From: a virus
Reading direction: 5' to 3' (one strand)
Virus record (IMG/VR): IMGVR_UViG_3300025141_000030
Length of the DNA stretch: 64,000 nucleotides
The translations under genes were made by a program, and so were the position numbers. The notes under the pieces were generated by a model. That model was not told the origin of the DNA, ran no database searches, and worked only from the letters and a program-made list of their open reading frames with translations. Each line of letters begins with the position of its first letter. The first letter of the stretch is position 1. Below are positions 18,231 through 59,974 of this stretch, one piece after another.

Positions 18231-18509
18231 GTGGGCAAGCTGACCGATAGCGAGATTATTGGTCTCATCCGCGAGGAGTACCAGAAGAAGGTGCGAGAGG
18301 TCGTGGATGAACTGGACTCTTTTATCAAGCTGGGAGCATCGGGCGATGTCAATATCCTCAGTCCAGGCCTGAAGATTAGAGATCGCGATGCCGGCCTGCT
18401 TTATACAATAGAACTCGTTCGTCCCGACGGCTGTCAGGTGGTCAGTGCCGTCGGCGTTGAGTTCTTTATCAAGAACGACGAACTTCGAGACAGGTATATA
18501 CTCGACTAG
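18231..18509 (+). CDS. hypothetical protein with conserved leader
   Basis: MGKLTDSEIIGLIREE. Confidence 0.6.
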   Translation: MGKLTDSEIIGLIREEYQKKVREVVDELDSFIKLGASGDVNILSPGLKIRDRDAGLLYTIELVRPDGCQVVSAVGVEFFIKNDELRDRYILD

Positions 18510-18518
18510 GGAGCTGCT

Positions 18519-19214
18519 ATGGATTATAAGGATATCACTAAAAATATACGTGAGTCGATGGGACTCCCCAATGACGAGGCTGAGAAGGAAACGCTTACCG
18601 AGGCTTTTGTAGCCCAGCCTAAGAAGTTCGATCTCGGCACCGAGAAGCTCAGTCAAAAGACGAAGACAGCACACCTGGAGCTCTATAACAACTATATATC
18701 GTGCTTCAATCGCACCTCAGCTGAACTGGATGGGGTTTCACGCGACGACGCTAACTCATCGTGCTCCCTTTTTAGGGACATCAAGCTGGCCGAACAGTTT
18801 AACATGGGCGCAGTCTACTTGCACGAACTTTACTTTGCCAATATCGCCTCTCACGCCTCGGAGCTGTCCATGGACTCCCTCACCTATATGCGACTTGCTC
18901 GCGACTGGGGATCGTTCGACCTGTGGCAGCGGGATTTTATCGCCTGCGCCATGTCAGCTCGTTCCGGCTGGGCAGTCTGCTGCTACAACACATACATCCA
19001 GGGCTATGTCAACGTTATAGTCGACGGCCACACTGGAAACGTGCCGATGGGATGCATTCCAGTTATTGTGATGGACATGTGGGAGCATGCCTACTACAAG
19101 GACTACCTCAATAATAAGAAGCAGTACCTCTATAACATGATGAGTGAGCTCAACTGGGACGTTATCGAGAATCGAGTCAAGCGCGCCGAGCGGATGGCGC
19201 AGGTTGCGAGGTGA
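18519..19214 (+). CDS. Fe/Mn superoxide dismutase family protein
   Basis: AHLELY, LHELYF, WGSFDLW, SGWA and DMWEHAYY motifs; N-terminal extension ending LTEA. Confidence 0.85.
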   Translation: MDYKDITKNIRESMGLPNDEAEKETLTEAFVAQPKKFDLGTEKLSQKTKTAHLELYNNYISCFNRTSAELDGVSRDDANSSCSLFRDIKLAEQFNMGAVYLHELYFANIASHASELSMDSLTYMRLARDWGSFDLWQRDFIACAMSARSGWAVCCYNTYIQGYVNVIVDGHTGNVPMGCIPVIVMDMWEHAYYKDYLNNKKQYLYNMMSELNWDVIENRVKRAERMAQVAR

Positions 19215-19218
19215 CACC

Positions 19219-19947
19219 GTGTCTGAGGACCTCTTAAGGGAGTACATCACAGAGTCACTCTCTGAGGCGGGAATCATTTCTACCCTTGCTAAAGGTGTGG
19301 CAGCGACGGGAAAGGCTGTGAAACAGGGCCAGCGTGTCGGAAATTTATTGTTCCAGCATGATTTTATGGGAGCCTTCGAGGCTTGGCTACCACCTGAGCT
19401 AAAGGACAAGTTAATTAAGCTGAGCTCCAAGGAGTTTTCCCAGGAGGACATAGGGGCCAGACGAAGGGAATTCGACAGGACTACTACTGATCTCGAGGCT
19501 GAGGTCTTGAAAAGACGGGATAAATTGAAAACCGTCGACCCGGCTGATGACGAGGCTAGGAAGAAGATTGAGCTTCAAATATCCCAGTTAAATGATGCGA
19601 TAAGTGCGCTGCAGGACCAGAAGGATGCGCTAGTAGTAACTCCCTCTCGAGGCCTTGCGTCCAAGCTCACGCATCGCATAGCTCGTGATATTAAAGGTGT
19701 GAATATAGATTCCGAGACATCTGGAATAAGGCAGGCGCTAGGTAAGCACTATAAAAAACTGGGGGTTAGTAACGACAAGGAAGGATTTTTGAAAGCCTTA
19801 ATGATGCCGCCAACCAGTGAAGTCAGGGACTTTTATATCGAAGTCGCCAAGAGCTATCACGGCATCCAGAAGATACAGATCGAGACAGGCGATCTTGCAA
19901 GATTGCAGGACAAGCTTGCTGTTGCAGTTGCAGCGGCGAGGAAATAG
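19219..19947 (+). CDS. hypothetical protein with leader-like N-terminus
   Basis: GAGGTG RBS then GTG 19219; SEDLLREYITESLSE. Confidence 0.6.
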   Translation: MSEDLLREYITESLSEAGIISTLAKGVAATGKAVKQGQRVGNLLFQHDFMGAFEAWLPPELKDKLIKLSSKEFSQEDIGARRREFDRTTTDLEAEVLKRRDKLKTVDPADDEARKKIELQISQLNDAISALQDQKDALVVTPSRGLASKLTHRIARDIKGVNIDSETSGIRQALGKHYKKLGVSNDKEGFLKALMMPPTSEVRDFYIEVAKSYHGIQKIQIETGDLARLQDKLAVAVAAARK

Positions 19948-19977
19948 TTATAACATGATTTATCGGTGGAGTCAGTG

Positions 19978-20541
19978 ATGAAATTATCCAGAGAGTTTTT
20001 AAGAAGGCTAATTGTCGAGGAGGCCCTGAAGCCGCAGGATGATGCAGCTGTCAAGGAGCCCATGGGGCTTTCATCCGATTCCCTCGACGACCAGATCGAT
20101 GCCCTGTTTATTAAGTACGAGAATCAGGCAATCGGATCCGTATCCGAGTCTAGGTCACTTAGGTCAGAGCTACCCCACCTGTTTGAGCAGGAGGGTGGCG
20201 AGGAGGAGGAATCCGAGATAAGCGGCGGTGACTCTGAGATCGTGGGCAGTGAGGAAATGACTGCCGAGGAGCCCGCCGAGGAGCGCCAGCCGCCCCTTAA
20301 CATCGACAACTTCGCCGGGTCTGTCGCCAGATTGATAATGAACTACGACAGCCTCTTGGATCCCGTGACTGTCATCCTTAATCGAGCAATGAACTTTTTG
20401 GACAACCGGTATGAAAAGAGCGTTGCTGACAATTTTACAGAGATAATGGCGCAGCAGTATGGTATGGAGCTGAATCCTATCGATGACACGCAGCCACCTC
20501 CGGCCGCTGCCGGAGCAGGATCGACGCCTGCTGGAGCATAA
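19978..20541 (+). CDS. acidic hypothetical protein with conserved leader
   Basis: GGAG RBS; MKLSREFLRRLIVEE; TAGTTA at 19945. Confidence 0.65.
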   Translation: MKLSREFLRRLIVEEALKPQDDAAVKEPMGLSSDSLDDQIDALFIKYENQAIGSVSESRSLRSELPHLFEQEGGEEEESEISGGDSEIVGSEEMTAEEPAEERQPPLNIDNFAGSVARLIMNYDSLLDPVTVILNRAMNFLDNRYEKSVADNFTEIMAQQYGMELNPIDDTQPPPAAAGAGSTPAGA

Positions 20542-20545
20542 CTTC

Positions 20546-20821
20546 ATGGACCTGGATCACAGGAAGAGCGTGCATATTAAGCTGCTGACTGACACGCATG
20601 CTAACTTTCGGATCGCATCATTTAAGCTTAAGCTTTCCATGCAGGAAATGTTTGAGGAGTTTGCCCAGCGAGTGATTGCTGAGGACCCTAAGGTAATGCG
20701 CATACTTCAGGACCTTGCTGATCGCAAGAAGAAAAAATTAGTTAAAAAGTTATCGAAGAGTGACGCGAGCACAATTCTTGATATAATTGACTCGGAGAGT
20801 CCATTTTCACAGGATTTATAG
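20546..20821 (+). CDS. hypothetical protein, possible ribbon-helix-helix DNA-binding protein
   Basis: KSVHIKL beta strand followed by two helices (THANFRIAS..LSMQEMFEEF). Confidence 0.45.
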   Translation: MDLDHRKSVHIKLLTDTHANFRIASFKLKLSMQEMFEEFAQRVIAEDPKVMRILQDLADRKKKKLVKKLSKSDASTILDIIDSESPFSQDL

Positions 20822-20825
20822 CGCT

Positions 20826-21107
20826 ATGCTTAAGGCAATAATAGAGGGTTCAATTAGGGCCCGACTGGCAGACATATATGAGAAGCTGGCACTTACATCT
20901 AGGGGAATTGCAGATCTCAGTGAGAAACTGATGGACCTAATAGATCATGTTTCTGAGAATCGCAAGTCGATCAATGTGTTAATTGAGATGCACACCCAGA
21001 TGATGCAGGCCGTTATGGAGGAGGAAGAGCGTTCAGCTAAAAGGGGCGTTCCCACTTTAATGGACCTGCTTGGCGCGCCTGTTGATGATGATGATATGCC
21101 AAACTAG
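20826..21107 (+). CDS. hypothetical coiled-coil protein
   Basis: In-frame ATG 4 nt after the previous stop. Confidence 0.5.
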   Translation: MLKAIIEGSIRARLADIYEKLALTSRGIADLSEKLMDLIDHVSENRKSINVLIEMHTQMMQAVMEEEERSAKRGVPTLMDLLGAPVDDDDMPN

Positions 21108-21116
21108 GAGAAAATT

Positions 21117-21305
21117 ATGAAAAAAGGATGGATGGATATAATTGTAGAGAAGCTAATAAGTCGCAAGCTGCTGACATTCGCGACAGCAACCGGCCTACTG
21201 GCATTCTCTGACCTTGACAGCGAGACGTGGGGGATGATTGCAGTCGTCTATATTGGATCGCAGGCCGCAGTCGATATTGTCAAGGCCTACCGGGAAAGTG
21301 GCTAA
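21117..21305 (+). CDS. putative holin
   Basis: 62 aa, two hydrophobic segments, KLISRKL motif seen in small phage holins; AGGAG RBS. Confidence 0.5.
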   Translation: MKKGWMDIIVEKLISRKLLTFATATGLLAFSDLDSETWGMIAVVYIGSQAAVDIVKAYRESG

Positions 21306-21712
21306 TGCTGACGCTGGTGGGACTCAAGAAGGCCTGGTCGTGGCTTAAGGCACACTGGTACTGGCCTGTCATTGCCACACTGGGTATTGTCACCCTTGTC
21401 GTTACCAGAAAGCCACCTACGTGGGTTTTTGAGATGATGAAAAAGAATCGTGAGTTCATGGATGAGGAACATGCCGCTATAGACCGTGCTGAGGCCGACG
21501 CCGCTGAGGCTAAGTTTGCCGCCGAGGATAGGTTCAACGAGGTGGTGGAGGAGATTGAGAAGAATCATACTGATCGCAAGGCAGAGCTGGACAAGAAGAA
21601 GGAACGGGAGATACGCAGGATTATCAAGGACACCAAGAACGATCCGACAGCCATCACCAACGAGATTGCCGAGAGGTTCGGTTTCACCGTCATCCTTCCG
21701 GAGGAGTCATGA
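21305..21712 (+). CDS. membrane-anchored coiled-coil protein (i-spanin-like)
   Basis: TAATG coupling to the holin; N-terminal TM helix followed by a charged coiled coil. Confidence 0.45.
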   Translation: MLTLVGLKKAWSWLKAHWYWPVIATLGIVTLVVTRKPPTWVFEMMKKNREFMDEEHAAIDRAEADAAEAKFAAEDRFNEVVEEIEKNHTDRKAELDKKKEREIRRIIKDTKNDPTAITNEIAERFGFTVILPEES

Positions 21713-22185
21713 GGAAGATCATCGCCTCCATGTGCATCGGCCTGATGTGCTTTATTTCACTGCCGACCTACGCGCTGGCCGACGACGATGTCGGAGAGGC
21801 CGTCGCGCCGCTTAACAAGAACCAACGCGCTCCATTTACAGGCACGTTGTTCAGCACCGAGGCTGCCGCCCGACTGTTGATCGACGCTGAGTTTAACTTG
21901 GAGGTTGCCCAGCTTGAGACGGATCGACAGCTTCTCATTCAGGCCGCACAGTTTCAACTGGAGATAGATCGGCGTGATGTGGACATCCTAATGTGGGAGA
22001 CTAAGTACGTCGATGTCCTGTCTATCCGTGACCAGCAGGTGACATACCTGGAGGACAGGCTGGAGAAGCTGGCTCGCCCTGACCACAAGGAGCTGATATT
22101 CATCGGAGGGGTGGCATCAGGTATTGTGGTGGTCCTTTTAACTGCGCTGGCTGTTAACGGAATAAATAATCAGCTGGCACAATGA
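21709..22185 (+). CDS. exported coiled-coil protein with C-terminal TM (spanin-like)
   Basis: Signal peptide, LNKNQRAPFTGTL motif, coiled coil, C-terminal hydrophobic helix. Confidence 0.45.
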   Translation: MRKIIASMCIGLMCFISLPTYALADDDVGEAVAPLNKNQRAPFTGTLFSTEAAARLLIDAEFNLEVAQLETDRQLLIQAAQFQLEIDRRDVDILMWETKYVDVLSIRDQQVTYLEDRLEKLARPDHKELIFIGGVASGIVVVLLTALAVNGINNQLAQ

Positions 22186-22197
22186 TCAGCTAGATAA

Positions 22198-22203
22198 TAT
22201 TTA
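22198..22203 (+). promoter_or_regulatory. TANTTA putative late-promoter motif
   Basis: TATTTA upstream of AGGAG RBS and ATG 22225. Confidence 0.45.
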
Positions 22204-22224
22204 TCTGGTGTGCTAGGAGTAGAC

Positions 22225-23874
22225 ATGAATTACAAACAGCTTAGGAGGGTCCTGAGAGAACGTCTGGACGCCCCCGGATCGCAAGGCGATGATGACCAAA
22301 GGCCTGAGGAGGAGCATCATCCTGTGGCCGTCCAGGAGCTTCCTGTGCAGGACCTGCCCGTTAACGTGGCCGACCTGACTGGCGAGGAGCTAGTCGCGCC
22401 TCCTGTCAATGACGCCGAGTTCCTACCAGGGAACCTACAGCAGCTGCAGCAGGCCGCTAGCGTTTTGGTCCAGCAGGTGCCCCCGCTTCAGATCCAGGAC
22501 TTCTATCACCGCCTCCGACGACTGATCGGAACTGTCATCCGCCAGCAGAATATGGCGGGCGAGAATGACGCCGAGCTCTCCCAGGAGCCGGGCGTCGGTC
22601 AGTCCATCGAGAGGGCCGACAATCCTGACGAGCCTGATTCCGCCGAGTCCGCCACTCCTGAGGTCTCCGAGGCGGCGAAGAGGATCCGCCGAGTGGTTCG
22701 CCAACAGGTGACAGAGCACAGGGTTAGGAAGGCTGTTAGACAGGTGCTTGTGGAACAATCGTCCCAGCAGGAGATCTTAGACGGGTTTAATCGAGAAGGC
22801 TTAGATTATAGGGATCCTTGGAATGATTTTCGAATGATGAATCCATGGATAATAAGACGCCTTAGCGAGAAGCCGATGGAAGAGATTCAGGCCATGCACG
22901 CTGAGTTTGAGTCAGCCGATGACTCGAGAGCAGACGATATTGTTAGAGATGTTCAGCGTGCCTATCTGCCTGGAGCTATTGGTGCTTTAAGAAAGCTAGG
23001 CCCACCTTTCTGGACTGACGCACATGAGGCCGCATATAAGGGAAGCAAGGATAGGGCAGCTACTGGCAAGACTGGCTCTGAGTCTGAACTATTAAAGAAG
23101 ATTTCTGAGCAGCTTAAGGCCGAGGGCGTTAAAATGGGCGTTAGCGCAATTAGGAATGTTTTGGGCAGGTTTAATGAGAATTTAGGAATTAGATACTTTT
23201 TTGACAACAAAGGTGTGGTTATTCCCGAGAAGAAGAGCACATATGAAAAACTCTTACCTCTACTTGTAATGAGCTTTAATCAATTATTTAGGACAGGTGT
23301 GAAGTCCTTTGTTTTTACGTCGCTTTATAATGGAGATCTTAGCGTTGAGCCCTATCAGGATAAGTCCCAGTCCCAAAATGAGATGGTTTTAAGGGAATTA
23401 TATGACGCCTTTGGCTTGGAGTTTATGGATAATGAAAGCTTCGCTGAGCTGTCTAAAAGAATTTTTTCCGAGGTGCTTTTGGGTGGGTTTGAAGATGTGA
23501 AACTTAAGCCCGGCGCAGGTGGTTATGTAGGTCTTCCGTCTGCTACTGATAAGTCACGAAGAGCTGAATATGAAACCGAATTTGGTGCGGAGAATGTCCC
23601 CGCAAAACAAAGTGAATACACCAAGCTTGAAGAGGAAAATCCAGAGATAATACTTAGAAATGCCAAGAAAATTAATGTCAGACTAAAGGAGTTTGAGGAT
23701 GATGTCTCCCGCCTACTCAGGACGTTTACAAAGGATGCTGCCGATGGATACATTAAGCAGACTGAGGACGTTGTTGAGACATTTGAGGGAAATGAAATGG
23801 CTAGAGAAGTTCTTGAAACCGTGGGACAGGCATTTAAAAAACACCAAAAACACGCTGAGAAATTGAAGAAATAG
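22225..23874 (+). CDS. large hypothetical protein with leader motif
   Basis: MNYKQLRRVLRE; similar internal helices RIRRVVRQQVTE and RVRKAVRQVLVE. Confidence 0.65.
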   Translation: MNYKQLRRVLRERLDAPGSQGDDDQRPEEEHHPVAVQELPVQDLPVNVADLTGEELVAPPVNDAEFLPGNLQQLQQAASVLVQQVPPLQIQDFYHRLRRLIGTVIRQQNMAGENDAELSQEPGVGQSIERADNPDEPDSAESATPEVSEAAKRIRRVVRQQVTEHRVRKAVRQVLVEQSSQQEILDGFNREGLDYRDPWNDFRMMNPWIIRRLSEKPMEEIQAMHAEFESADDSRADDIVRDVQRAYLPGAIGALRKLGPPFWTDAHEAAYKGSKDRAATGKTGSESELLKKISEQLKAEGVKMGVSAIRNVLGRFNENLGIRYFFDNKGVVIPEKKSTYEKLLPLLVMSFNQLFRTGVKSFVFTSLYNGDLSVEPYQDKSQSQNEMVLRELYDAFGLEFMDNESFAELSKRIFSEVLLGGFEDVKLKPGAGGYVGLPSATDKSRRAEYETEFGAENVPAKQSEYTKLEEENPEIILRNAKKINVRLKEFEDDVSRLLRTFTKDAADGYIKQTEDVVETFEGNEMAREVLETVGQAFKKHQKHAEKLKK

Positions 23875-23965
23875 TTTTGGTATTTTACCTCTACTAAATA
23901 TACACGGTTATTTAATCTCCTTCCTATTTAATATAGGGTCTTAAGTCCCCCGACGGGAGGGATCT

Positions 23966-24910: not shown

Positions 24911-24918
24911 GAAGTCAC

Positions 24919-32871: not shown

Positions 32872-33489
32872 GTGAGCCTCCGCGATGTAGTACTGCTGGT
32901 CTTAGAGGAATACAGCGCATCTCCTGTTAATTTTAACGTTGATGCTGATGCTGGCCTTGACGATGTCGGTGAGCCCAATATCGATATAAGGATTCGAATC
33001 GATGGCGATTTTGATCGTGATGCCCTCGAGGCAGAGCTTTATGAGACGATTGTCCATGAGATGACACACCTCGGCCAGGACAGCCTGGAAAAAGTTGGGC
33101 AGTCTTGTGGCCTAGATTATTTTGCCTGCTTTACCGAGAGTGAGGCATTCGCCTCAGGTCTCCTGGCCCGGGCCGTCCGGGCACATAGGAGCTTACCGGA
33201 TGTGATTGATGACTACCTTCAAGCTCAGGTTACAGCCGACAGATTAAATGCTGAAAATGTGGCTACAGTTAAAGACACATGGCTGAAACAGGCTTCACGA
33301 TTAGTACCTGAAATTGAACGTGAGAAACAAGTGTATGCGGCCCATGCCGTTCCAGAAATTTTAAAAACTATTGATGCTAATGCCTCCACGACAGAGCCAC
33401 TCGTGTATCATGGATATCCTTATATCGCCGATGTTGATGAAACAGATATTTTTACTATTGCATATGCTGTGAACTATTCTGCCAGTTAA
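32872..33489 (+). CDS. HEXXH zinc-metallopeptidase-like protein, leader-like N-terminus
   Basis: IVHEMTHLGQ followed by ESEAF; MSLRDVVLLVLEE. Confidence 0.6.
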   Translation: MSLRDVVLLVLEEYSASPVNFNVDADAGLDDVGEPNIDIRIRIDGDFDRDALEAELYETIVHEMTHLGQDSLEKVGQSCGLDYFACFTESEAFASGLLARAVRAHRSLPDVIDDYLQAQVTADRLNAENVATVKDTWLKQASRLVPEIEREKQVYAAHAVPEILKTIDANASTTEPLVYHGYPYIADVDETDIFTIAYAVNYSAS

Positions 33490-38907: not shown

Positions 38908-39978
38908 ATGGAAATTACCCTCGACAGCCTACAGGTTCATGGCGAACTCGATCCCGAGCTGTGGGATAATTTTAAACTTAAGCCAGGAATAAGAAAGGCA
39001 CTGCTTCGAATAGCGGCCGAGTTTCTTATTTCACTTGGGACTGAGGTGGAGCTGAGTGACGTGACCGTCACGGGCAGTCTCGCTAATTTTAACTACACAC
39101 CTGCCAGCGATATCGACCTTCATATTATCTTTGACTACACGGCTATCGCTGAGGACGTCGACGTTGTCAAGGAGATGTTGGCTGCCAAGCGAACGCTGTG
39201 GAACCTTAAGCATGGCATAACTGTTAAGGAGCATGAGGTTGAAGTGTATCCCCAGGATTCTACCGAGCCTCATCACTCTACGGGTGTCTATAGCCTGATA
39301 AGGGATGACTGGGTCACCCGACCTCGTCCTAGCTCCCCGGCTGTTGACACGACAGCAGTATCCCAGAAAGCTCGAGCAGCAGCACGTTTTATTGACGACA
39401 TTCTCATGATGGATGATCGAATGATGTTTATCCCTATGATTAGAGAAAAGCTCACGACAATGAGAAAGTCAGGTTTGGATTCTGCTGGTGAATACTCGGT
39501 GGAAAATTTAGTGTTTAAAATCTTAAGGCGTCATGGCTACTTGGATAAGCTGGCCGAAGCAGAGCTTCACGATCGCGATGTTTCATTGTCTTTGGCACAG
39601 GAAGGAAATATAATGAAAGTATCAAAGTCTATCTTTGCAGAAATTTTAAGGGAGGAATTTGGAGAGCTGGAAAATCCGCGCCACCGCGGAGGCTCCCATG
39701 AGAGATCCCAGGCCGGCGACTTTGAGCCCCCTGATGACCTCCTCTTAGGCGGCGATGACGCTGATGAATGTGATGAGGGGTGTGGGTGTGGGCAACACGT
39801 TCCAGCGCACGACAACCACATGGTCTTGACCGCCTCAGAGGAGATTAACTCCCTGGCCTCAAAAATAGCTGATGCCTCTGCATCACGATCTGACTTGCCA
39901 GATTGGGTGGATTTTAAGCTTTCTAGTTCCCTGACTCACCTTCGCGATATTTACCTCTATTTGAAAGGAAGCGACTGA
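38908..39978 (+). CDS. Pol-beta superfamily nucleotidyltransferase fused to a leader-bearing C-terminal module
   Basis: TGSLANFNY..SDIDLH, VEVY, GEYSVENLVFK; internal AAGGA RBS + ATG 39613 MKVSKSIFAEILREE; terminal LPDWVDFKL motif. Confidence 0.75.
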   Translation: MEITLDSLQVHGELDPELWDNFKLKPGIRKALLRIAAEFLISLGTEVELSDVTVTGSLANFNYTPASDIDLHIIFDYTAIAEDVDVVKEMLAAKRTLWNLKHGITVKEHEVEVYPQDSTEPHHSTGVYSLIRDDWVTRPRPSSPAVDTTAVSQKARAAARFIDDILMMDDRMMFIPMIREKLTTMRKSGLDSAGEYSVENLVFKILRRHGYLDKLAEAELHDRDVSLSLAQEGNIMKVSKSIFAEILREEFGELENPRHRGGSHERSQAGDFEPPDDLLLGGDDADECDEGCGCGQHVPAHDNHMVLTASEEINSLASKIADASASRSDLPDWVDFKLSSSLTHLRDIYLYLKGSD

Positions 39979-40280: not shown

Positions 40281-40727
40281 ATGATTATGAGAATAAGGCG
40301 ATCGACATTTAAGAAGATACTCCAGGAAGAGCTGGGATCCGCCGTGGTTAAGGGGACGGACGGCGGCCTCGGTGAGCAGGTCACGTTTGCAGAGTACACA
40401 TCCCAGAATTTTGATATATGCCCGGGTGCCGTTAAGGCTTTTGTTAGGCTTAAGGACTTGGTTTCCGAACAGGACGAAGTTGCGGTTGCGGAGGATGCCA
40501 TGGAATCTGTCGATGATCTTTTAGGGATTGAAAAGGATGCGCTTGCTAAGGGGTTCGCCACAGAGGATGAGTTTGATCAGATTCTCAATTTAGCCGGCCA
40601 TGCCCGCGTAAAGATTGGGCAACTCGGCGCCTTGATGGGAAAAAGTGTCGCCCAGGACTTTTCCTTTATTAACCAGCATATTATGACTGTTGCAAAAATG
40701 TTAGAGGGTAGACAAGATGAAGATTAA
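40281..40727 (+). CDS. hypothetical protein with conserved leader
   Basis: MRIRRSTFKKILQEEL; NFDICPGA motif. Confidence 0.6.
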   Translation: MIMRIRRSTFKKILQEELGSAVVKGTDGGLGEQVTFAEYTSQNFDICPGAVKAFVRLKDLVSEQDEVAVAEDAMESVDDLLGIEKDALAKGFATEDEFDQILNLAGHARVKIGQLGALMGKSVAQDFSFINQHIMTVAKMLEGRQDED

Positions 40728-41241
40728 CAGAGACAACTTGCGAAATTTAATTGCAAACACAATATCTGAAGAAGTTGGCACCCCCTCTTTTCCGTTAGAT
40801 CCGAACAAGGACGGGAACTTAACCCCAATGGAACTTTTTCATCACTTCGATCTCGACGGTGATGGCCAGGTTTCTGTGCAGGATTACGAAGAGCACGTGC
40901 GATGGCACTGTAAAAACGATGATGGCTTTCAGCAGGAAATGACAATCGAGCAGACGGTGCCGCTCCACCTGGCCGACTCCTCTATTCATGGCACTGGTGT
41001 CTTCGCTACCGATGACATACCAGCAGGAACTAACTTGGGTATTTCTCACATAGCTGCAGGTGATGGGTTTATTCCTACTAACCTTGGTGCCTTTCACAAT
41101 CACAGCGCTGAGCCTAATGCCGGGAATGCCCTACGCCGCGGCGTTCGAAGGATTTTTGCGTTGACTGACATACCAGCTGGGACTGAAATAACCGTGGATT
41201 ATGTCCAGCAACCCGACCTCGAGCAGCCGGATAATTTTTAA
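40717..41241 (+). CDS. leader + EF-hand pair + SET domain protein
   Basis: DPNKDGNLTPME and DLDGDGQVSVQD EF loops; SSIHGTGVFA, NHSAEPNA, DIPAGTEITVDY SET motifs. Confidence 0.8.
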   Translation: MKINRDNLRNLIANTISEEVGTPSFPLDPNKDGNLTPMELFHHFDLDGDGQVSVQDYEEHVRWHCKNDDGFQQEMTIEQTVPLHLADSSIHGTGVFATDDIPAGTNLGISHIAAGDGFIPTNLGAFHNHSAEPNAGNALRRGVRRIFALTDIPAGTEITVDYVQQPDLEQPDNF

Positions 41242-52525: not shown

Positions 52526-52553
52526 ATAAGCGCAGCTGGGAGGTGCCGGGTAA

Positions 52554-53454: not shown

Positions 53455-53471
53455 GATTGTGAAGGTTTAAC

Positions 53472-54002
53472 ATGTTTAGGCGGCATAGGCGAGACTACCC
53501 CCAGTACTTTTTATCTGCCAAGGTGGAGGTGAGGCCATCCGAGGTGCATGGAGTCGGGGTATTTGCCAAGGCAAAGATCGAGGCACATGAGCTGATAGAG
53601 GGCGCCCCTGTTATATTGTTTCATACTGACACCAAGGACGTGCTTCGGGAAGCCTACAGCAGCGATCACGTTTTAATGGATTATCCCTTCACGTGGTCAT
53701 CGTCACAGCTGGCTTTCTCTTTGGGCTACGGCGGCATCTATAATCACTCTACGTATAATCCCAATGCAACCTGGCAGGTTAATGAGAAGCTAACTACACT
53801 GGATTTTTATAGTCGACATGTCATTGAGCCTGACACAGAAATTGTTACGCGATATATTTCTCTTCGTCGATGTGAAGATGGAGACTTGTGGTTCGAGGAT
53901 CCTGCTGTTGAGCCTAAGCTGGGCAACCTTTATTCTGAGCCAGAGGCGATAAGCAAGGCTAACTTTTTTGATTTTATAACTAAGGGACCAACAAAGAAAT
54001 GA
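53472..54002 (+). CDS. SET domain protein
   Basis: SEVHGVGVFA, GYGGIYNHS..PNA, IEPDTEIVTRY. Confidence 0.8.
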   Translation: MFRRHRRDYPQYFLSAKVEVRPSEVHGVGVFAKAKIEAHELIEGAPVILFHTDTKDVLREAYSSDHVLMDYPFTWSSSQLAFSLGYGGIYNHSTYNPNATWQVNEKLTTLDFYSRHVIEPDTEIVTRYISLRRCEDGDLWFEDPAVEPKLGNLYSEPEAISKANFFDFITKGPTKK

Positions 54003-54289: not shown

Positions 54290-54986
54290 CAAGCGAGTCC
54301 AGGATATTTTAGCTGATAACCCTTGGCGTGCCCACCGACACAATCCATTTATTTTGGATGCCGATGTGGATCGCATAGTGCGATATAATGAGACAGTCAC
54401 TGAGCAGTTTCAGCTGCGTGTAGACGTTCCTCCCGAGCCTATCCATGGCAATCCCCTTCATGCTAATGTCGTCGTGCTGATGTTGAATCCTGGATTTCAT
54501 GACGATGACGTTGTGTATGCTGCCGATCCGGAATACTGTGAGCAGCTGGCATGCGAGATGTCTATGGTCCAGGGTCCTGGTGACTATCCCTTTGTTCCTC
54601 TGGATCCGCGATGGCGACAGACACCCACTGGATCTTGGTGGAGGAAGGTCCTGTCGCGACTGATCGCACATGCCGGCGAGCAGCAGGTCGCCGAACGTTT
54701 TGCGGTGCTGGAGTGGTACCCATATCACTCACGTAGCTTTCGCTATAAGTCACACCTATTACGCCTCAGCGAAGCGACGGCCTTTAACCAGAGTGTGGCT
54801 GCCGCCTGCGTGAACGATCCTGATAAGACAGTCATCTGCATGAGGGGCCACGACCTGTGGACCATGGGGTGTAAGTTTGACGCCTACGAACTGCCCCGGC
54901 CGGTAAATCCGCGGTGTGCATCCCTGACTCCTGGGAATTTGGGTGATGAGCTTTTTGAAGACATCCTTGGTAAGATGACACTGTAG
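54276..54986 (+). CDS. uracil-DNA-glycosylase-superfamily-like protein
   Basis: PEPIHGNP..ANVVVLMLNPG and LEWYPYHS motifs. Confidence 0.5.
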   Translation: MMTTSKRVQDILADNPWRAHRHNPFILDADVDRIVRYNETVTEQFQLRVDVPPEPIHGNPLHANVVVLMLNPGFHDDDVVYAADPEYCEQLACEMSMVQGPGDYPFVPLDPRWRQTPTGSWWRKVLSRLIAHAGEQQVAERFAVLEWYPYHSRSFRYKSHLLRLSEATAFNQSVAAACVNDPDKTVICMRGHDLWTMGCKFDAYELPRPVNPRCASLTPGNLGDELFEDILGKMTL

Positions 54987-55031
54987 TTAAATTTTTAACT
55001 TTCCCCTACATATTATTATGGGGGAACAACA

Positions 55032-55625
55032 GTGCGTTACTTTCTTGTCCTAATCTTAGCTTTGTTTGTAGGCTGTTCACCAGTCAATGCGACTGACCCG
55101 GAACCTGTCGAGCCTGAACCCGCACCCGAGCCTGAACCTGATCCGATGCCCTGGGTGACCTGGGAGGAGTGCGGTGGCTCAGAGGGTGACCATGCCTGTA
55201 ATGTGGTGCTCCAGGACCAGAACGGCGACGAGTTTAACCTGTACGAGCAGTTCGGCTCCATCATTGTCCTGGACTTCTCGACGATGTGGTGCGGCCCCTG
55301 TAACCAGGCGGGCATGCATTCCCAGGACGTCCAGGACCAGTATCGGGACCAGGGAGTCGTTTACGTCACGGTGCTGATAGAGAATGGGCAGGGCATCCCT
55401 CCCACACTCGCCGATATTCAGGACTGGGTCGACGCCTTCGACGTCACCGATTCTCCAGTCCTTGTCGGCGATCGGACACTGCTTCAGAGTGGTGGCGGCC
55501 CGTGGCCCCTGCAGTCCTGGCCGACGTTCTATTATATAGACAGGGAGATGGTGATTCGGGACATAGACCGCGGCTATAACGGCCAGGAGGTTATCTACTC
55601 CATCGAGTGGATGCTGTCACTGTAG
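55032..55625 (+). CDS. TlpA/redoxin-like thioredoxin-fold lipoprotein
   Basis: FVGC lipobox, PE linker, DFSTMWCGPC, WPTFYYID. Confidence 0.82.
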   Translation: MRYFLVLILALFVGCSPVNATDPEPVEPEPAPEPEPDPMPWVTWEECGGSEGDHACNVVLQDQNGDEFNLYEQFGSIIVLDFSTMWCGPCNQAGMHSQDVQDQYRDQGVVYVTVLIENGQGIPPTLADIQDWVDAFDVTDSPVLVGDRTLLQSGGGPWPLQSWPTFYYIDREMVIRDIDRGYNGQEVIYSIEWMLSL

Positions 55626-55680
55626 TGTGATTCTCTATATATTAGTTGCGTGCGCGTTGTATAATTGGCTACACCCTCAA

Positions 55681-55686
55681 TAATTA
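55681..55686 (+). promoter_or_regulatory. TANTTA putative late-promoter motif
   Basis: TAATTA heading the 55713-59974 cluster of leader-bearing genes. Confidence 0.45.
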
Positions 55687-55712
55687 TAGTTTGAACACTA
55701 GGAGTGCATTCA

Positions 55713-56150
55713 ATGAAAATAACAGCAAAGTACCTAAGGTCGATCATCCGCGAGGAAGTTGTTCACCTTATAAGCGAGGATCGACAATTTAGTGACGCGC
55801 AGAAAAAGGCTCGCGAACTGGCGATGAATCTGCGACGTGTTGAGGATCTACTTGCACTCGGGCAAGGCAAACAGGACCTTCAAGTTCTTCGTAGTGATAT
55901 GGACCAGTGGAGCGCGAAGCTCGCTTTAAGTGGTGCTGACCAGGCTCTATTTAGTCCGGCTCTGGAGAATGGTAATGCGGATACAATTTCTGCTGTTTTA
56001 GAGCCATTACATGATGCCCTTCGCCTGGCCAGCGGCGAGCGTGTCGATCATCCACATGCCCCCGAGTCGGTGCGAGCCGCAGTTCCACCTGGCCAAGAAC
56101 GCCCTGAGTATGTGCCAGGACCGAGCCAAGGGTTCATTGGTGGTAGGTAG
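55713..56150 (+). CDS. hypothetical protein with conserved leader
   Basis: AGGAG RBS; MKITAKYLRSIIREE. Confidence 0.65.
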   Translation: MKITAKYLRSIIREEVVHLISEDRQFSDAQKKARELAMNLRRVEDLLALGQGKQDLQVLRSDMDQWSAKLALSGADQALFSPALENGNADTISAVLEPLHDALRLASGERVDHPHAPESVRAAVPPGQERPEYVPGPSQGFIGGR

Positions 56151-56156
56151 AACATT

Positions 56157-56729
56157 ATGAAACTGACACCCAAACACTTACGACAGATGATTCGAGAGGA
56201 GCTATCGACAGTCCTGGTCGAGGCCTCCGTTCCCCACTCACCACTGCCGGAGGACCTCCGGTACTCGGGATGGTCCCCTGGGGAGACCACTGATTATTGG
56301 CAGCGCCTTTACAATGTGCAGGATGGTGTTTTCACCAGCAAGGAGGGCGATCGGATTCCCAGTCACCAACCACCATCGCCGGTGGTCAAGTTTGTAGTCA
56401 CAGATACAAGTGAGGACTTCGGTGCAGGTAAGACGTGGAACCTGGTGGTGTCGGGTGGCCACCGCCGGACTGAAGCGCGCCCAGCCGAGGGGGATCGCCC
56501 CGAGAAAAAGAGTGTCGAGTTGATGCCCTTGGTTGGAAACATAACGAATGCGATGGGTACTGACCCCCGAGCCCCAGACTCCTACCAGGGATACCTAGTT
56601 CGCAGGGGGATTCCTGCGAACGAACTGGCCAATGCAGTCAAGGACATGCAGGCGCTGCTAAGCCAGCATCGCAAACCCAGGTGGCTTACAGATATCCGTC
56701 CTGATGTGGATACGAGTGGTATCGAGTAA
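56157..56729 (+). CDS. hypothetical protein with conserved leader
   Basis: MKLTPKHLRQMIREE. Confidence 0.65.
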   Translation: MKLTPKHLRQMIREELSTVLVEASVPHSPLPEDLRYSGWSPGETTDYWQRLYNVQDGVFTSKEGDRIPSHQPPSPVVKFVVTDTSEDFGAGKTWNLVVSGGHRRTEARPAEGDRPEKKSVELMPLVGNITNAMGTDPRAPDSYQGYLVRRGIPANELANAVKDMQALLSQHRKPRWLTDIRPDVDTSGIE

Positions 56730-56995
56730 TGACACTGTCCTCAGACCAGGCTTGGAAGGTCTTCACCACACTGCTGGCGGTGCTGGTGGTGCCCCTGGCC
56801 GGCTGGGTCTGGAGCATGAACGTCGAGGTGGCCCAGCTCCGCAATGACCTGGGTGACCTGGAGGGGATCGTGGCAGACATCGACCGCCAGGTCGAGGAGC
56901 AGGAGGAGGCTTCCCGGACGTTGATCGGGGTCGAGAAGGACGTTGAGCACATTAGGGAGATCCTTGACAGGATCGAGATACTGGTGACCCGATGA
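56729..56995 (+). CDS. membrane-anchored coiled-coil protein
   Basis: N-terminal TM followed by heptads; TAATG coupling. Confidence 0.55.
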   Translation: MTLSSDQAWKVFTTLLAVLVVPLAGWVWSMNVEVAQLRNDLGDLEGIVADIDRQVEEQEEASRTLIGVEKDVEHIREILDRIEILVTR

Positions 56996-57225
56996 AGATG
57001 CTGACCATCGGGCTGGCTGTCGCCTACCTGGGACTGCTGGGGATGTCGTCGACCGCGCTGACGGACCTGTCGGATATCCAACGTGACGCCCTGGCACTGG
57101 AGCTCTACCTCCAGGACCGACATGACCACACGGAACACTGTCCGGAGCTGGCGTGGGAACAGCCGAAGCTGGGCACCTACAAGGAGGAGCTGCGGTCGCA
57201 GCTACCGGAGGAGTGTAAGGCATGA
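56992..57225 (+). CDS. small exported/membrane protein
   Basis: Hydrophobic N-terminus; ATGA overlaps. Confidence 0.5.
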   Translation: MKMLTIGLAVAYLGLLGMSSTALTDLSDIQRDALALELYLQDRHDHTEHCPELAWEQPKLGTYKEELRSQLPEECKA

Positions 57226-57419
57226 AAGTTGACTTTCCATACGGCCCGGGAGATATCATCCTGACAGGTCGGTTCAAGAACAAGCGGACAGTCGTCCGAG
57301 AGATCGGGGAGGACGAGTACGGCCACCCGACTGTCAACGGCAAGCCTGCATTGAACTTTAAGATAGAGAAACTGCTACCCAAGGACATGTGGAGCAGGAA
57401 GTCAAGGGAAACGAAATGA
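57222..57419 (+). CDS. small hypothetical protein (GRFKNK...PTVNGK domain)
   Basis: GGAGGAG RBS; GDIILTGRFKNK...DEYGHPTVNGK. Confidence 0.6.
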   Translation: MKVDFPYGPGDIILTGRFKNKRTVVREIGEDEYGHPTVNGKPALNFKIEKLLPKDMWSRKSRETK

Positions 57420-57781
57420 GGCTTACAAAGGGAAAACTTAGAAGGATCATTCGAGAAACCATGCAACCTCTCATGGATCCCCTCTTTAACATGAGAGAGA
57501 TGTGCAAGGAATTCACTCTTCTTGAGGATCACCTGAACCAGCCGGATATGCAGTGCCACGATTGTATTAACAAGCATCTGATGAAGTGCGAGGCTCTGGC
57601 TGAAGAGGCGTTATCACTTGATAACCAAAACCAATATCCGTTCATTAAGGCAATCCCTAATATGATTCGAGGGTGGCATAAACATGTTCTTGATGGTGGG
57701 CCTCTTAAAGACCTCGCGTCAGCAATTCGTTCAGTCCGGAAAGAGTTAACACCACTCGTAGCGGGGAGATTTGAAACATGA
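57416..57781 (+). CDS. leader-bearing protein with CxDCxxKH motif
   Basis: MRLTKGKLRRIIRE; DPLFNMRE..K...LLEDHL...CHDCINKH...EALAEEA. Confidence 0.65.
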   Translation: MRLTKGKLRRIIRETMQPLMDPLFNMREMCKEFTLLEDHLNQPDMQCHDCINKHLMKCEALAEEALSLDNQNQYPFIKAIPNMIRGWHKHVLDGGPLKDLASAIRSVRKELTPLVAGRFET

Positions 57782-58071
57782 GACTGGCACCAGGACAGCT
57801 TAGGCAGATCATCCGTGAGGAGATCCATACCATCACCGAGCAGGGATGGCGGGGCGGATTGGCATTGCGACAGGAGCCAACCACATCCTTTAAGTTGCCC
57901 AAGGCTAACGATCCAGCGATGGACATTGCGGGCCAGGTTAATGAGCTGATAGGCGCTGGATACTCTCCAGCTGATGCCATTAATGCGGTTGCATCGACCC
58001 CCGGCTGGTCGGTTACTTCGGTTAGCACGGCCTGGGAAACATACAAAGATACACAGGAAGATACAGGATGA
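57778..58071 (+). CDS. hypothetical protein with conserved leader
   Basis: MRLAPGQLRQIIREE. Confidence 0.65.
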   Translation: MRLAPGQLRQIIREEIHTITEQGWRGGLALRQEPTTSFKLPKANDPAMDIAGQVNELIGAGYSPADAINAVASTPGWSVTSVSTAWETYKDTQEDTG

Positions 58072-58673
58072 AAATATCAACAGCAAAACTTAAACAGCTT
58101 ATCCGGGAGGAACTGGAGAGTGTCGTCGCGGAGTCCCAGAGCCCCGGCGCTGATGAGGGATCGGCTGAACCTAAGGACAGCAGCTACGATCAGTGGGAAA
58201 AAAAGAAGATAGAGACGATTACATCCCACGCCCCGGTGGGACATGTGACACCTGCTCAGATAGAGCAGGCCTCCCTGGATGGGATCGCCGCTCTGGCGAC
58301 CCGCAAACGGGGGAATACCCTGTTATCTGACTTCCTTCAACAGAATCCCAACGCCCAGATACCTATCATTCGACCCTACTCCCTGGACACTGTCGGTACC
58401 GCCATGGCTATCGAGATTCATGGGCTTAAAATACCCTCTCCGGAGGGATTTCGTAGTTATGCCCTGATGGCCAGCAGGTTCGATCCCACTATCGATTTCA
58501 CCCTACTTTCATTTACCCCTGGTATTAATGGCTACAGTGGTTCCGGTGTGGTCAACCTGTCCGCCGAAAGTGATGTGGAGGAGGATATCGAGGTGGAGGT
58601 GCAGGAAGACCTGGCTGGCGCTGAGGAGTATGAACAGTTTAAGCGTGCCCACAGCGTTGAAGCGCTAGGCTAG
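58068..58673 (+). CDS. hypothetical protein with conserved leader
   Basis: MKISTAKLKQLIREE. Confidence 0.65.
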   Translation: MKISTAKLKQLIREELESVVAESQSPGADEGSAEPKDSSYDQWEKKKIETITSHAPVGHVTPAQIEQASLDGIAALATRKRGNTLLSDFLQQNPNAQIPIIRPYSLDTVGTAMAIEIHGLKIPSPEGFRSYALMASRFDPTIDFTLLSFTPGINGYSGSGVVNLSAESDVEEDIEVEVQEDLAGAEEYEQFKRAHSVEALG

Positions 58674-58684
58674 GAGATCTAGAC

Positions 58685-58987
58685 ATGAAAATATCAGCAG
58701 AGACACTTAAGCGGCTTATCAAGGAGGAGCTCTTCTACCGGGAGTTCCACCGCGAAGGTGATGAACTAAATGAGACTAGCATTCCTCCGGGCGCTAGTTC
58801 ACATGACAAATTACTTAATGCTCTATACAACGTGCTGTATGAATACTGGACTGATGATGCAATACCAGGCCGGTCTTCATTTAAACAGTTAGGCATGGGG
58901 CATCAGAATGAGCTGGTGAATGACGTTCTCTACTCGTTGCCGGCCATTTATAACAAGTATGCTGTCGACGACGACGACGAGGAGTAG
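58685..58987 (+). CDS. hypothetical protein with conserved leader
   Basis: AGGAG RBS; MKISAETLKRLIKEE. Confidence 0.65.
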   Translation: MKISAETLKRLIKEELFYREFHREGDELNETSIPPGASSHDKLLNALYNVLYEYWTDDAIPGRSSFKQLGMGHQNELVNDVLYSLPAIYNKYAVDDDDEE

Positions 58988-58993
58988 CACAAT

Positions 58994-59974
58994 ATGCGTC
59001 TTGGCAGGCACCAGCTTCAGGATCTCATAAGGGACGTCCTCCTGGAGGAGTGCCTGTTGCGAGAGTCATCCGCCCAGGACCAGACCAAGGCTGCCTATAA
59101 GGCCATCTTCATGGCCGGCTGTCCGGCCGCTGGAAAGGGTACTGTCAAGGATGTCATTATCCAGGCCTTTCCTTTCGCATCGAGTATCTTTAAGGATGTC
59201 AACGTGGACACTATGTACGAGTTCCTGCTTAAGAAGCATAAGGTAGGCCTTCAGGATCCGGCGACGTCCCGTGCTACTACACCATATCCTGAAGGGCATC
59301 CGCTTGCAGATATAATTGACGTGGTCCCAGCGGAGGAGACTGAGGCCTTTAGAGCCGAACGCTCTAGTTATCGCTCCGCAGCTGCCAAGCACATGGGGAG
59401 GGCGAAAGCAGCTGTGACTGGCGGTGCCCACGGGATGAATCCCGAGCACCTCGGTCTGGATCCTTCCGAGTATTCCGGTCCGAAAAAGCGCAAGGAGTCG
59501 GCTACGAGCAGGTTGGAGGACTTTGTTAATAACGGCCTAGGCGTGATCATCGATGGTACTGCAGCTAATTTTGACAGGGTGGTTCGTGAGAAACAGCTGC
59601 TCGAGGACATGGGATATAGGACCATGATGATAGTGGTCAAGGTTCCGCCTGAGGAGGCTGTCGGACGTAACATCGGCCGGGGTGAGAAGGACCGCAGGAG
59701 CATTGGTCATGACGTGCTATACAGGCAGTGTCTTCAGCTGGTCGGCGGCGTCGATCCAAATGATCCGGAAGGCGAGCCCATCGTCGGCGTCCTTAATAAG
59801 TACCGGCCGGTTTTTGGGGAGGACAATTTTATTGAGATTGACAACACTCTTCCTACCTCCGAGACTGTGACTCCGGAGGTGAAGAGCAAGGTCTCGAAGT
59901 TCCTTTCGCAGCCGCTGTCTTCGATTGCCCAGGAGCGTGAGGACCTAAAGCTCAAGGCCAAGCAGCGTTCCTGA
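58994..59974 (+). CDS. P-loop kinase (zeta-toxin/AAA_33-like) with conserved leader
   Basis: AIFMAGCPAAGKG Walker A, IIDGT, GYxTMMIxV, RN..R; MRLGRHQLQDLIRDVLLEE. Confidence 0.75.
   Translation: MRLGRHQLQDLIRDVLLEECLLRESSAQDQTKAAYKAIFMAGCPAAGKGTVKDVIIQAFPFASSIFKDVNVDTMYEFLLKKHKVGLQDPATSRATTPYPEGHPLADIIDVVPAEETEAFRAERSSYRSAAAKHMGRAKAAVTGGAHGMNPEHLGLDPSEYSGPKKRKESATSRLEDFVNNGLGVIIDGTAANFDRVVREKQLLEDMGYRTMMIVVKVPPEEAVGRNIGRGEKDRRSIGHDVLYRQCLQLVGGVDPNDPEGEPIVGVLNKYRPVFGEDNFIEIDNTLPTSETVTPEVKSKVSKFLSQPLSSIAQEREDLKLKAKQRS

Follow-up and report, generated by a model that had tools for sequence, protein, structure and literature searches.

What does a short peptide do at the N-termini of proteins that have unrelated bodies? 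A sequence-only reading of the window, the whole 64,000-nucleotide stretch of viral DNA analysed here, had placed one amphipathic leader on 13 or more proteins and regarded it as a tag that loads a varied payload into the phage head. We examined this leader in the window, in its closest relative, the syntenic G001, and in metagenomic viral contigs.

The leader and its carriers

All 13 starts listed in the sequence-only reading were present at their coordinates. A strict motif, M-[KR]-[ILV]-x4-[LFIM]-[RKQA]-x-[LIMV]-[ILV]-x-E-[ET], was run on the six-frame translation of the window and gave nine matches (starts at 19978, 39613, 40287, 55713, 56157, 57416, 57778, 58068 and 58685), compared with none in 200 codon shuffles. 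The pattern common to these nine ORFs was M-[KR]-[ILV]-x4-[LF]-x2-[LIM]-[IL]-x-E-E. The motif sat at the first Met of the ORF in eight of the nine matches, the exception being 39613, which lies inside the 356-aa ORF 38908-39978.

An independent HMM was built on 303 metagenomic leader instances; its top score over 20 shuffles was 10.0. Scanning with a leader HMM, as had been proposed, yielded 19-30 bits for six window ORFs and identified them as clear members of a metagenomic family of 4,702 protein clusters. These six ORFs form the main array, 55713-58987:

55713..56150, plus strand: leader ORF of 145 aa with an orphan body, first of the main array (HMM 19.3 bits)
56157..56729, plus strand: leader ORF of 190 aa with an orphan body (HMM 30.4 bits)
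57416..57781, plus strand: leader ORF of 121 aa (HMM 21.5 bits)
57778..58071, plus strand: leader ORF of 97 aa (HMM 19.3 bits)
58068..58673, plus strand: leader ORF of 201 aa (HMM 29.2 bits)
58685..58987, plus strand: leader ORF of 100 aa (HMM 20.5 bits)

Four further ORFs (19978, 39613, 40287 and 18231) scored only 3-6 bits, which is noise level; they match the local pattern, are kept in G001 and appear to be divergent members. Shortened or altered leaders may be present at 22225, 40717 and 58994, where the N-termini are kept in G001 and have no significance standing alone:

19978..20541, plus strand: divergent leader ORF, a 187-aa acidic orphan (strict motif; HMM 6.2 bits)
39613..39978, plus strand: leader with a 121-aa tail, nested in frame in ORF 38908-39978 (strict motif at residue 236)
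40287..40727, plus strand: divergent leader ORF of 146 aa (strict motif; HMM 3.9 bits)
18231..18509, plus strand: possible leader variant of 92 aa with a GTG start (only the L-I-R-E-E part matches; 3.4 bits)
22225..23874, plus strand: possible shortened leader on a 549-aa orphan protein (N-terminus kept in G001)
40717..41241, plus strand: possible leader variant on a 174-aa EF-hand and SET-domain protein (N-terminus compared with G001)
58994..59974, plus strand: possible leader variant on a 326-aa P-loop kinase, Zeta_toxin / AAA_33-like (Pfam matches)

The number of carriers was therefore smaller than claimed, with nine strict matches, six of them clear by HMM; the five "weaker versions" that had been added to the count (18519, 19219, 25941, 32601 and 32872) had no statistical support as this leader. 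Judged from sequence, this uncultured marine jumbo phage has a leader peptide of 16-22 residues on some ten small proteins that are otherwise unrelated, and the leader is very common among ocean T4-like phages. The leader model gave no significant match in cultured phages (the nearest ones, T4 and two cyanophages): the nearest showed two marginal matches (E 0.002 and 0.06), the other three phages none. A literature search found neither a paper nor an experiment on this leader.

The protein bodies behind the leader were unrelated, as had been proposed: they did not resemble one another, and most were without a match in Pfam. A Pfam domain was absent from 144 of the 150 top members of the family. 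All six clear members in the window were orphan proteins. For the 56157 protein, Pfam and PHROG searches found no match and the AF2 single-sequence model was unusable (pLDDT 37). The payload named in the sequence-only reading held in part: the kinase, the EF-hand/SET protein and the tail of the nucleotidyltransferase ORF carry divergent versions only, and the SOD and the peptidase have no supported leader.

Among the divergent and possible members, the leader of 19978 was kept in the G001 ortholog, the N-terminus of 18231 was conserved there through V-V-D-E, and the G001 ortholog of 40287 had a more canonical leader ending W-L-A-E. The 39613 start has its own Shine-Dalgarno sequence, and its nesting was repeated in G001 with no stop, a strong Shine-Dalgarno sequence and an ATG; the N-terminal part of the enclosing ORF gave weak nucleotidyltransferase Pfam matches. 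The first 18 aa of the 22225 protein were near-identical to G001, with the single substitution N2D, and the stretch after them diverged; Pfam and PHROG searches with this protein found no match, and its Atlas structure model was of low confidence. The 40717 protein matched Pfam SET at 2.9e-10, with EF-hand matches under the gathering cut-off, and its N-terminus ends T-I-S-E-E in the window and V-I-N-E-E in G001. In the 58994 kinase the N-terminal V-L-L-E-E-C-L-L-R-E was conserved in G001. Another AAA_33 kinase, encoded in L050, carries a canonical leader and adjoins the protease there; it has no pairwise similarity to the 58994 kinase.

Selection on the peptide and recombination at leader DNA

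Comparison of the main array with G001 revealed three cassette-level differences, with breakpoints in or at leader DNA. The 55713 cassette was wholly missing from G001, and the junction was the leader start. At 57416, identity was 90% across the upstream DNA and on through nucleotide 35 of the leader, and the body was unrelated. The 16-aa leader of 58068 was 100% identical in G001, where it is fused to the body of the next gene; a body was therefore deleted between two leaders. At 58685 the first 30 aa were conserved and the bodies diverged after them. The ortholog of 56157 kept leader residues 1-22, and that of 57778 was conserved over its full length. Arrays of 6-7 leader ORFs were also seen in genomes G003 and G033.

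These breakpoints raise the alternative that conservation is chiefly at the DNA level, with a recombination or translation-start element marking cassettes and a peptide without function; the T4 ipII and ipIII starts, identical over 30 of 30 nt, are in keeping with it. However, synonymous Leu, Arg, Ile and Glu codons differ between leader copies, so selection acts on the leader peptide, and the amino-acid profile is kept in 4,702 clusters diverging from one another by over 50%. In multi-module proteins, 38% of internal leader copies lack Met and keep the peptide; the element is therefore a peptide and not a translation-start element. We consider the DNA-level explanation highly improbable. The leader is a portable N-terminal peptide motif under selection at the protein level, and recombination takes place at its coding DNA. 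Turnover of the bodies may be fast because leader-coding DNA serves as a homologous recombination site at which whole cassettes are swapped, deleted and inserted.

Information content in the leader dropped to background past residues 22-23. Of 294 leader instances, 99% had a hydrophobic-x-E triplet ending at residue 14; a second triplet ended at residue 22 (41%), 21 (14%) or 18 (11%); the total near residue 22 was about 66%, compared with a background of about 2% at residues 24-59. The further (L/I/V)xE noted earlier after the leader was thus borne out. Glu14 was followed by Glu in 93% of instances, whereas Ala or Ser comes next at known T4 sites. In multi-module proteins a hydrophobic-x-E precedes each module. 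T4 gp23 Glu65 falls in an invariant alignment column, where marine capsid proteins have V-I-K-E, V-L-K-E or L-L-K-E; the I-I-K-E of the leader resembles this capsid maturation site and has the same form.

The description of the leader as amphipathic failed: its helical hydrophobic moment was not above that of shuffled sequences. The profile was 40-50% charged, and hydrophobic runs never exceeded two residues. A Sec/Tat signal peptide or membrane anchor was rejected: the stretch of some 10 or more hydrophobic residues behind a short basic N-region, which either would need, is absent. Other ORFs of the same loci carried a second, unrelated leader class, M-K-x-L-F-E-N-W-R-x-F-L-N-E, which also ends in hydrophobic-x-E.

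Phage lineage, head modules and a shared upstream motif

The leader-bearing viral contigs are T4-like. Peptidase_S77, the gp21-type prohead protease, was found in 22 of 30 leader-bearing IMG/VR contigs and in all six that were at least 90% complete. Of five jumbo phages related to the window (DnaE identity 60-68%), four had S77 and all had 1-12 leader ORFs; a gp23-type capsid was present in relatives (Gp23 Pfam match 6e-72). The association between leader and S77 protease may simply mirror common ancestry within one phage lineage.

Protease and head-module context was read in the relatives' contigs. Within head modules, leader ORFs occupied the gap between terminase and portal, the place after the portal and those directly before or after the protease, and an array of seven followed the gp23-type capsid gene. 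The median distance from leader ORF to protease was 13 kb (17 of 22 within 17 kb). The conserved core protein after the protease showed weak similarity to the leader (hhalign P 0.009, probability 4.5%). In the window, the leader genes sit among replication, chaperone and metabolic genes, outside the head module. An equal occurrence on replication enzymes had been named as speaking against packaging; none of the window's 11 identified replication, metabolic or chaperone enzymes (DnaE, and ten by Pfam) carried the leader. Tubulin was found in five of ten leader-rich genomes.

A promoter-like motif preceded several leader genes:

55680..55687, plus strand: promoter-like motif ATAnTTA[AGT] (ATAATTAT), 26 nt upstream of 55713, before the main leader array

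Similar copies were ATAGTTAT, 27 nt upstream of leader ORF 19978, and ATATTTAT, 21 nt upstream of ORF 22225; copies other than that at 55680 lay before leader genes or their operons at 16917, 19944, 22197 and 38513. Twelve of the 20 plus-strand copies in the window were 5-60 nt upstream of gene starts (expected 1.5); among these starts were 19978, 22225, 55713 and those of two operons containing leader ORFs. In genomes G033 and G035 the motif was upstream of capsid genes, scaffold genes and leader ORFs. In G033, a relative of the window, it stood 17-22 nt before the capsid (MCP) gene, the scaffold gene and three leader ORFs; for a fourth ORF, which is leader-like, the distance was 31 nt. Replication and metabolic genes had a different upstream motif.

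A predicted prohead-targeting role

Association with the protease lineage, location in head modules, an upstream motif shared with capsid genes and likeness to a cleavage site suggest that the leader is probably a prohead-targeting propeptide like the T4 CTS, removed by the prohead protease. During prohead assembly, residues 1 to about 12 (M-K-I-T-K-x-Q-L-K-Q-I-I) would attach to one of the scaffolding-core components, so that any protein carrying the leader would be enclosed. The gp21-type (S77) protease would then cut behind the Glu of one of two candidate sites within the leader, or of both: I-[KR]-E, with its Glu at residue 14, and a hydrophobic-x-E whose Glu lies near residue 22. Cleavage would release the variable bodies, mostly orphan proteins and a few enzymes, within the capsid, and we infer that they are present in virions. 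Their ejection into the host, where they would serve as effectors or in anti-defence, would be one step beyond packaging.

Under one alternative, the leader would bring accessory scaffold or core proteins, like T4 gp67, gp68 and gp22, into the prohead; these would help to build or size the large capsid and then be degraded and expelled, with no host delivery. Leader ORFs do occupy the places of T4 gp67 and gp68, between portal, protease and scaffold; the N-terminus of the small conserved protein that follows the protease resembles the leader, multi-module proteins, in which every module comes after a hydrophobic-x-E, have the look of substrates for cutting up, and acidity or predicted disorder is seen in several bodies. 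However, presence or absence of cassettes, body swaps and thousands of orphan bodies fit dispensable arms-race genes better, and enzyme bodies (kinase, SET, nucleotidyltransferase tail) are poorly suited to a scaffold role. We regard this explanation as unlikely. Unlikely, too, is an N-terminal helix unrelated to the capsid, which would dock or oligomerise on a common partner in the host cell such as a phage chaperone, a polymerase, a membrane site or a cytoskeletal element. It would suit one peptide conserved over thousands of proteins, internal copies without Met, the surroundings of the leader genes in the window and a tubulin gene within about 1-8 kb of a leader ORF in five genomes. Yet half of the leader-rich genomes lack tubulin, whereas all near-complete ones have the S77 protease, and a docking helix leaves unexplained the sharp end of conservation at hydrophobic-x-Glu, the likeness to the capsid maturation site, the head-module position and the motif common to capsid and scaffold genes.

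Were the leader a head-loading tag, the proteins that a major group of uncultured marine phages packages, and probably injects, could be recognised by a simple rule on sequence. No fewer than 4,700 protein clusters, nearly all of unknown function, would become candidates for host takeover or anti-defence, and the CTS principle of T4 would be general and evolvable, with different leaders following the same logic. Effector-cassette exchange among such phages would be explained, and new tags would be available to load foreign proteins into phage capsids. More tentatively, uncultured T4-like ocean phages, including jumbo phages, might run modular cargo loading on a very large scale, drawing on two or more leader classes that can replace one another and on thousands of families of orphan cargo. 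Part of the cargo might be multi-module polyproteins cut by the prohead protease into separate effectors in the capsid, and cargo might be rewired by recombination at leader DNA. Such phages might then hold a large, unexplored stock of proteins injected for host takeover and anti-defence, and a natural set of packaging tags.

Encapsulin cargo-loading peptides are likewise short portable tags, directing diverse enzymes into an HK97-fold shell; they are C-terminal and uncleaved, belong to a bacterial nanocompartment and involve no delivery to another cell. Inner-body and ejection propeptides of phiKZ, 201phi2-1 and SPN3US are cut after Glu by gp175 or gp245, which are related to gp21; their three-residue motif is S/A-x-E with redundant sites, and many proteins are loaded in these jumbo heads (PMC9026906). 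The window's lineage differs from them in its T4-type head module. To our knowledge, propeptides of the phiKZ type are long and protein-specific, not one portable common leader.

T4 gp21 cuts after L/I-x-E (PMC9026906), and the internal-protein loci of T-even phages encode diverse proteins with only a CTS in common (PMC3012670). We verified the T4 CTS, M-K-T-Y-Q-E-F-I-A-E, at ipII and ipIII; gp22, gp24, IPII and IPIII of T4 begin with similar short peptides ending in hydrophobic-x-E. Like the CTS, the leader is a short N-terminal peptide on unrelated, fast-evolving proteins that ends in hydrophobic-x-Glu, and it occurs in hypervariable cassette loci; relatives of the window have a gp21-family (S77) protease and a gp23-type capsid. 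The likeness is in general form only (an M-K start, a hydrophobic pair, x, E): the leader model had no match in the T4 genome and the leader no sequence similarity to the CTS. The leader also differs in its length of 16-22 residues against 10, in the nesting of two candidate cut sites, with Glu next to the first, in its internal repeats in multi-module proteins, in the second leader class of the same loci and in its presence on at least thousands of predicted cargo families in uncultured marine phages. T4 internal proteins are basic, whereas many leader-protein bodies are acidic. Cassette shuffling at the leader loci matches that at the internal-protein loci of T-even phages.

Leader copies in the window

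Unrelated small proteins of the window share an N-terminal leader of 16-22 residues. We scanned the window in six frames with a strict leader pattern, M-[KR]-[ILV]-x4-[LFIM]-[RKQA]-x-[LIMV]-[ILV]-x-E-[ET], using 200 codon shuffles as control. The pattern gave nine matches in the window and none in the shuffles, and its C-terminal half alone gave seven, every one at ORF residues 8-15. Leader copies encode Leu, Arg, Ile and Glu with different synonymous codons, so the conserved object is the peptide. The window was also searched with a leader HMM trained on outside sequences only (303 metagenomic instances; shuffle maximum 10.0 bits). All 13 starts listed in the sequence-only reading lie at the positions given there.

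Supported and candidate leader starts in the window
55713, 56157, 57416, 57778, 58068 and 58685: leader scoring 19-30 bits
19978, 39613, 40287 and 18231: HMM score at noise level
22225, 40717 and 58994: shortened or altered leader versions

The N-termini of all these ORFs were conserved in the syntenic relative. The sequence-only reading had counted 13 or more leader proteins: six are certain, three probable and four possible. Five further "weaker versions" found no support as leaders of this type, and a hydrophobic-moment test did not support the description of this leader as amphipathic.

Several individual ORFs showed unusual layouts. A 356-aa ORF at 38908-39978, with weak nucleotidyltransferase matches in its N-terminal part, contains an in-frame internal leader at 39613, preceded by a strong Shine-Dalgarno sequence and ATG with no intervening stop. 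The syntenic relative retains this layout, an indication that the ORF gives two products or is a maintained fusion. Two separate SET-domain proteins are present, one without a leader (53472-54002) and one with a leader variant and an EF-hand (40717-41241). A 205-aa ORF at 32872-33489, whose N-terminus is not a supported leader, carries an H-E-x-x-H motif (H-E-M-T-H) that is kept in the relative and is a possible zinc metallopeptidase.

Nearly all of the window, which comes from a large uncultured phage, is coding DNA on the plus strand. It encodes a DnaE-type polymerase, and Pfam matches were to thymidine kinase, a DHHA1 protein, GroEL, sigma-70, helicase, IMPDH/GMP reductase, malate synthase, isocitrate lyase, PEP carboxykinase, Hsp70, 5'-3' exonuclease, a trypsin-like peptidase, pterin dehydratase and an AhpC-like protein. 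PHROG matches for the large 5' fibre-like ORFs were only marginal, and a 422-aa ORF (16960-18228) had no relative in cultured phages and none in IMG/VR in a close search. A 40-mer of the window had no exact match in either the viral or the metagenome contig sets. Structure models of ORF 56157 (AF2, single sequence, pLDDT 37.5) and ORF 22225 (Atlas, pLDDT 0.39, no look-alike found) were unusable. Five body-only matches (L003-L007) were rejected as spurious, the frames they hit being ORFs of 41-45 aa.

The leader family and its likeness to prohead cleavage sites

Outside the window, the leader profile matched 4,702 clusters (50% identity representatives, E <=0.001) among 1.84 billion proteins. 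These proteins are unnamed and come from marine metagenomes; 144 of the top 150 had no Pfam domain. The canonical leader is M-K-I-T-K-S-Q-L-K-Q-I-I-K-E-E-L. Information content was high at residues 1-16, showed a second peak at Glu22 and fell to background from residue 24. A hydrophobic-x-Glu triplet ended at residue 14 in 99% of instances, against a background of about 2%. The further triplet noted in the sequence-only reading was borne out: it ended at residue 22 in 41% of instances, at residue 21 in 14% and at residue 18 in 11%.

The best-scoring proteins (among P0001-P0150, the metagenomic leader proteins) carried two to four leader copies. Met was absent from 38% of the internal copies, so these are true repeated modules, and a Glu lay 1-4 residues ahead of most of them. 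Multi-module proteins may be polyproteins that the prohead protease cleaves.

The T4 prohead protease gp21 cuts after L/I-x-E (PMC9026906). In the internal protein IPIII, the first 10 residues suffice for head targeting; the N-terminal part targets, and residues 8 and 10 govern processing (PMC9026906). T4 ipII and ipIII both start M-K-T-Y-Q-E-F-I-A-E, and T4 gp22 and gp24 have N-terminal peptides of the same form. In T4 gp23 the cut falls after L-T-E, at residue 65. In our alignment of capsid-protein N-termini this Glu65 column was invariant and aligned with V-I-K-E, V-L-K-E or L-L-K-E in marine phages, with Ala or Ser as the next residue. The leader's I-I-[KR]-E has the same form as this marine capsid site, with the caveat that in 93% of instances leader Glu14 was itself followed by Glu. 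The second site, near residue 22, more often had Gly, Ala or Ser next and coincides with the end of conservation; for these reasons it may be the main cut.

A literature search found the motif strings in no paper, and no description of such a leader or of a capsid targeting sequence (CTS) in marine T4-like phages. A tblastn search with leader proteins found no leader match among 50,697 records of cultured phages, which is weak evidence of absence because short motifs fall below the reach of BLAST at that database size. Cyanophage matches to leader-protein bodies were weak and uninformative.

Leader ORFs in the head modules of related viruses

At least 600 stretches in IMG/VR matched the leader. 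Peptidase_S77, the gp21 protease family, was encoded in 22 of 30 leader-bearing contigs, including all six at >=90% completeness; the eight without it were fragments (<=50% complete). Complete genomes of 186-195 kb had 6-11 leader ORFs each (E up to 1). The closest relative of the window was a 66-kb contig, syntenic across the whole window, with a 90% identical DnaE. Contigs of 318 and 257 kb are among the more distant jumbo relatives, in which DnaE is 60-68% identical; S77 was found in four of five jumbo relatives tested and 1-12 leader ORFs in all five. The nearest cultured phages, whose portal is ~43% identical, gave two marginal leader matches (E 0.002 and 0.06), and T4 and two cyanomyoviruses gave none; no match in any of them was significant.

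Leader ORFs in these relatives are part of the head module.

Leader ORFs and head genes in the relatives
L050: leader ORFs before terminase and after portal; leader-kinase fusion directly before protease
L067: 302-aa leader ORF directly after protease
L109: leader ORF immediately before protease
L101: leader ORF two genes before protease
G035: leader ORF between terminase and portal
G033: array of seven leader ORFs directly after gp23-type capsid gene

The median distance from a retrieved leader ORF to the protease gene was 13 kb (<=17 kb in 17 of 22), a figure qualified by near-duplicate contigs and by the limit that short contigs put on the distance; for contigs of >=145 kb it was <=17 kb in five of eight. 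The leader-kinase of L050 and the window kinase had no pairwise similarity.

A conserved 130-190-aa protein lies 3' of the protease gene, next to it or separated from it by one or two ORFs (alignment A3).

Small core protein after the protease
L106:2046-2465
L110:2032-2421
L137:2418-2969
and their homologues

Its N-terminus is leader-like, and a G-V-D-I-S motif is conserved close to its C-terminus. Aligned with the leader by hhalign, it fell in the expected register but weakly (P 0.009, probability 4.5%), and it was not similar to T4 gp67 or gp68. Pfam and PHROGs gave nothing for this protein, for a 264-280-aa head-module protein, for the scaffold or for the cargo bodies.

A second, unrelated leader class, M-K-x-L-F-E-N-W-R-x-F-L-N-E, occurs in these arrays and head modules on different ORFs; it also ends hydrophobic-x-Glu and is strongly amphipathic. 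It had 41 matches in the loci analysed (L117, L116, L107-L109, L076 and others) and none in the window. In the jumbo relative G034 the S77 match was split in two inside a single 573-aa open frame (G034:C1:88475-89962), and the G035 portal ORF (L142:3474-6803) was 1,109 aa long against ~650 aa elsewhere; both head genes could contain intein-like or other insertions.

In five IMG/VR genomes (G005-G009) a tubulin-family gene lay within ~1-8 kb of the leader-ORF arrays and about 10-17 kb away from the protease gene. Tubulin was present in only five of ten leader genomes, and tubulin- or nucleus-linked targeting was therefore rejected as a general role.

In G033 the motif ATAnTTA[AGT] preceded the scaffold and capsid genes by 17-20 nt and four leader ORFs by 21-31 nt; in G035 it stood before two leader ORFs and one structural ORF. 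On the plus strand of the window, 12 of 20 copies lay 5-60 nt upstream of gene starts (1.5 expected), among them the copies before 19978, 22225 and 55713, before the fibre-like gene at 198 and before the operons starting at 16960 and 38530. The pattern is suggestive of co-expression of leader and head genes from a putative promoter class. DnaE, helicase, Hsp70 and sigma genes had TGTAMN-N15-17-TAWWWT instead, a putative promoter class distinct from ATAnTTA.

TGTAMN-N15-17-TAWWWT in the window (seven copies, 1.2 expected)
10831, 29389, 34398, 34640, 34860, 41250 and 50385: each ahead of a replication, chaperone or sigma gene or of a small gene nearby

Readings of the leader and exchange of cassettes

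The most economical reading of these sequences is that the leader is a CTS-like propeptide that directs its protein to the prohead and is processed by the S77 protease, and we consider this probable. Because the sequence-similarity test to the T4 CTS was negative, we do not place the leader in the T4 CTS family; it would be a new CTS-like variant. Delivery of the leader-protein bodies into the host as effectors is plausible; it lies one inference further and we hold it tentatively. The two main alternatives are both unlikely: a shared docking helix in a role unrelated to the capsid, which does not account for the head-module positions, and a mark of accessory core or scaffold proteins that are degraded, for which the leader-like N-terminus of the small core protein speaks. 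A purely DNA-level or translation-start element was rejected on the synonymous variation and the Met-less internal copies, and is very unlikely.

At the DNA level the window and its close relative (G001) differ in three cassettes. The 55713 cassette is absent from the relative, and the junction falls in leader nt 1-12. At 57416 the upstream DNA and 35 nt of leader are shared with the relative (90% identity), and the bodies are unrelated. In the relative a deletion removes the body of 58068 and fuses a hybrid leader to that of 58685. The pattern is as at T-even internal-protein loci, which hold diverse proteins with only the CTS conserved (PMC3012670).
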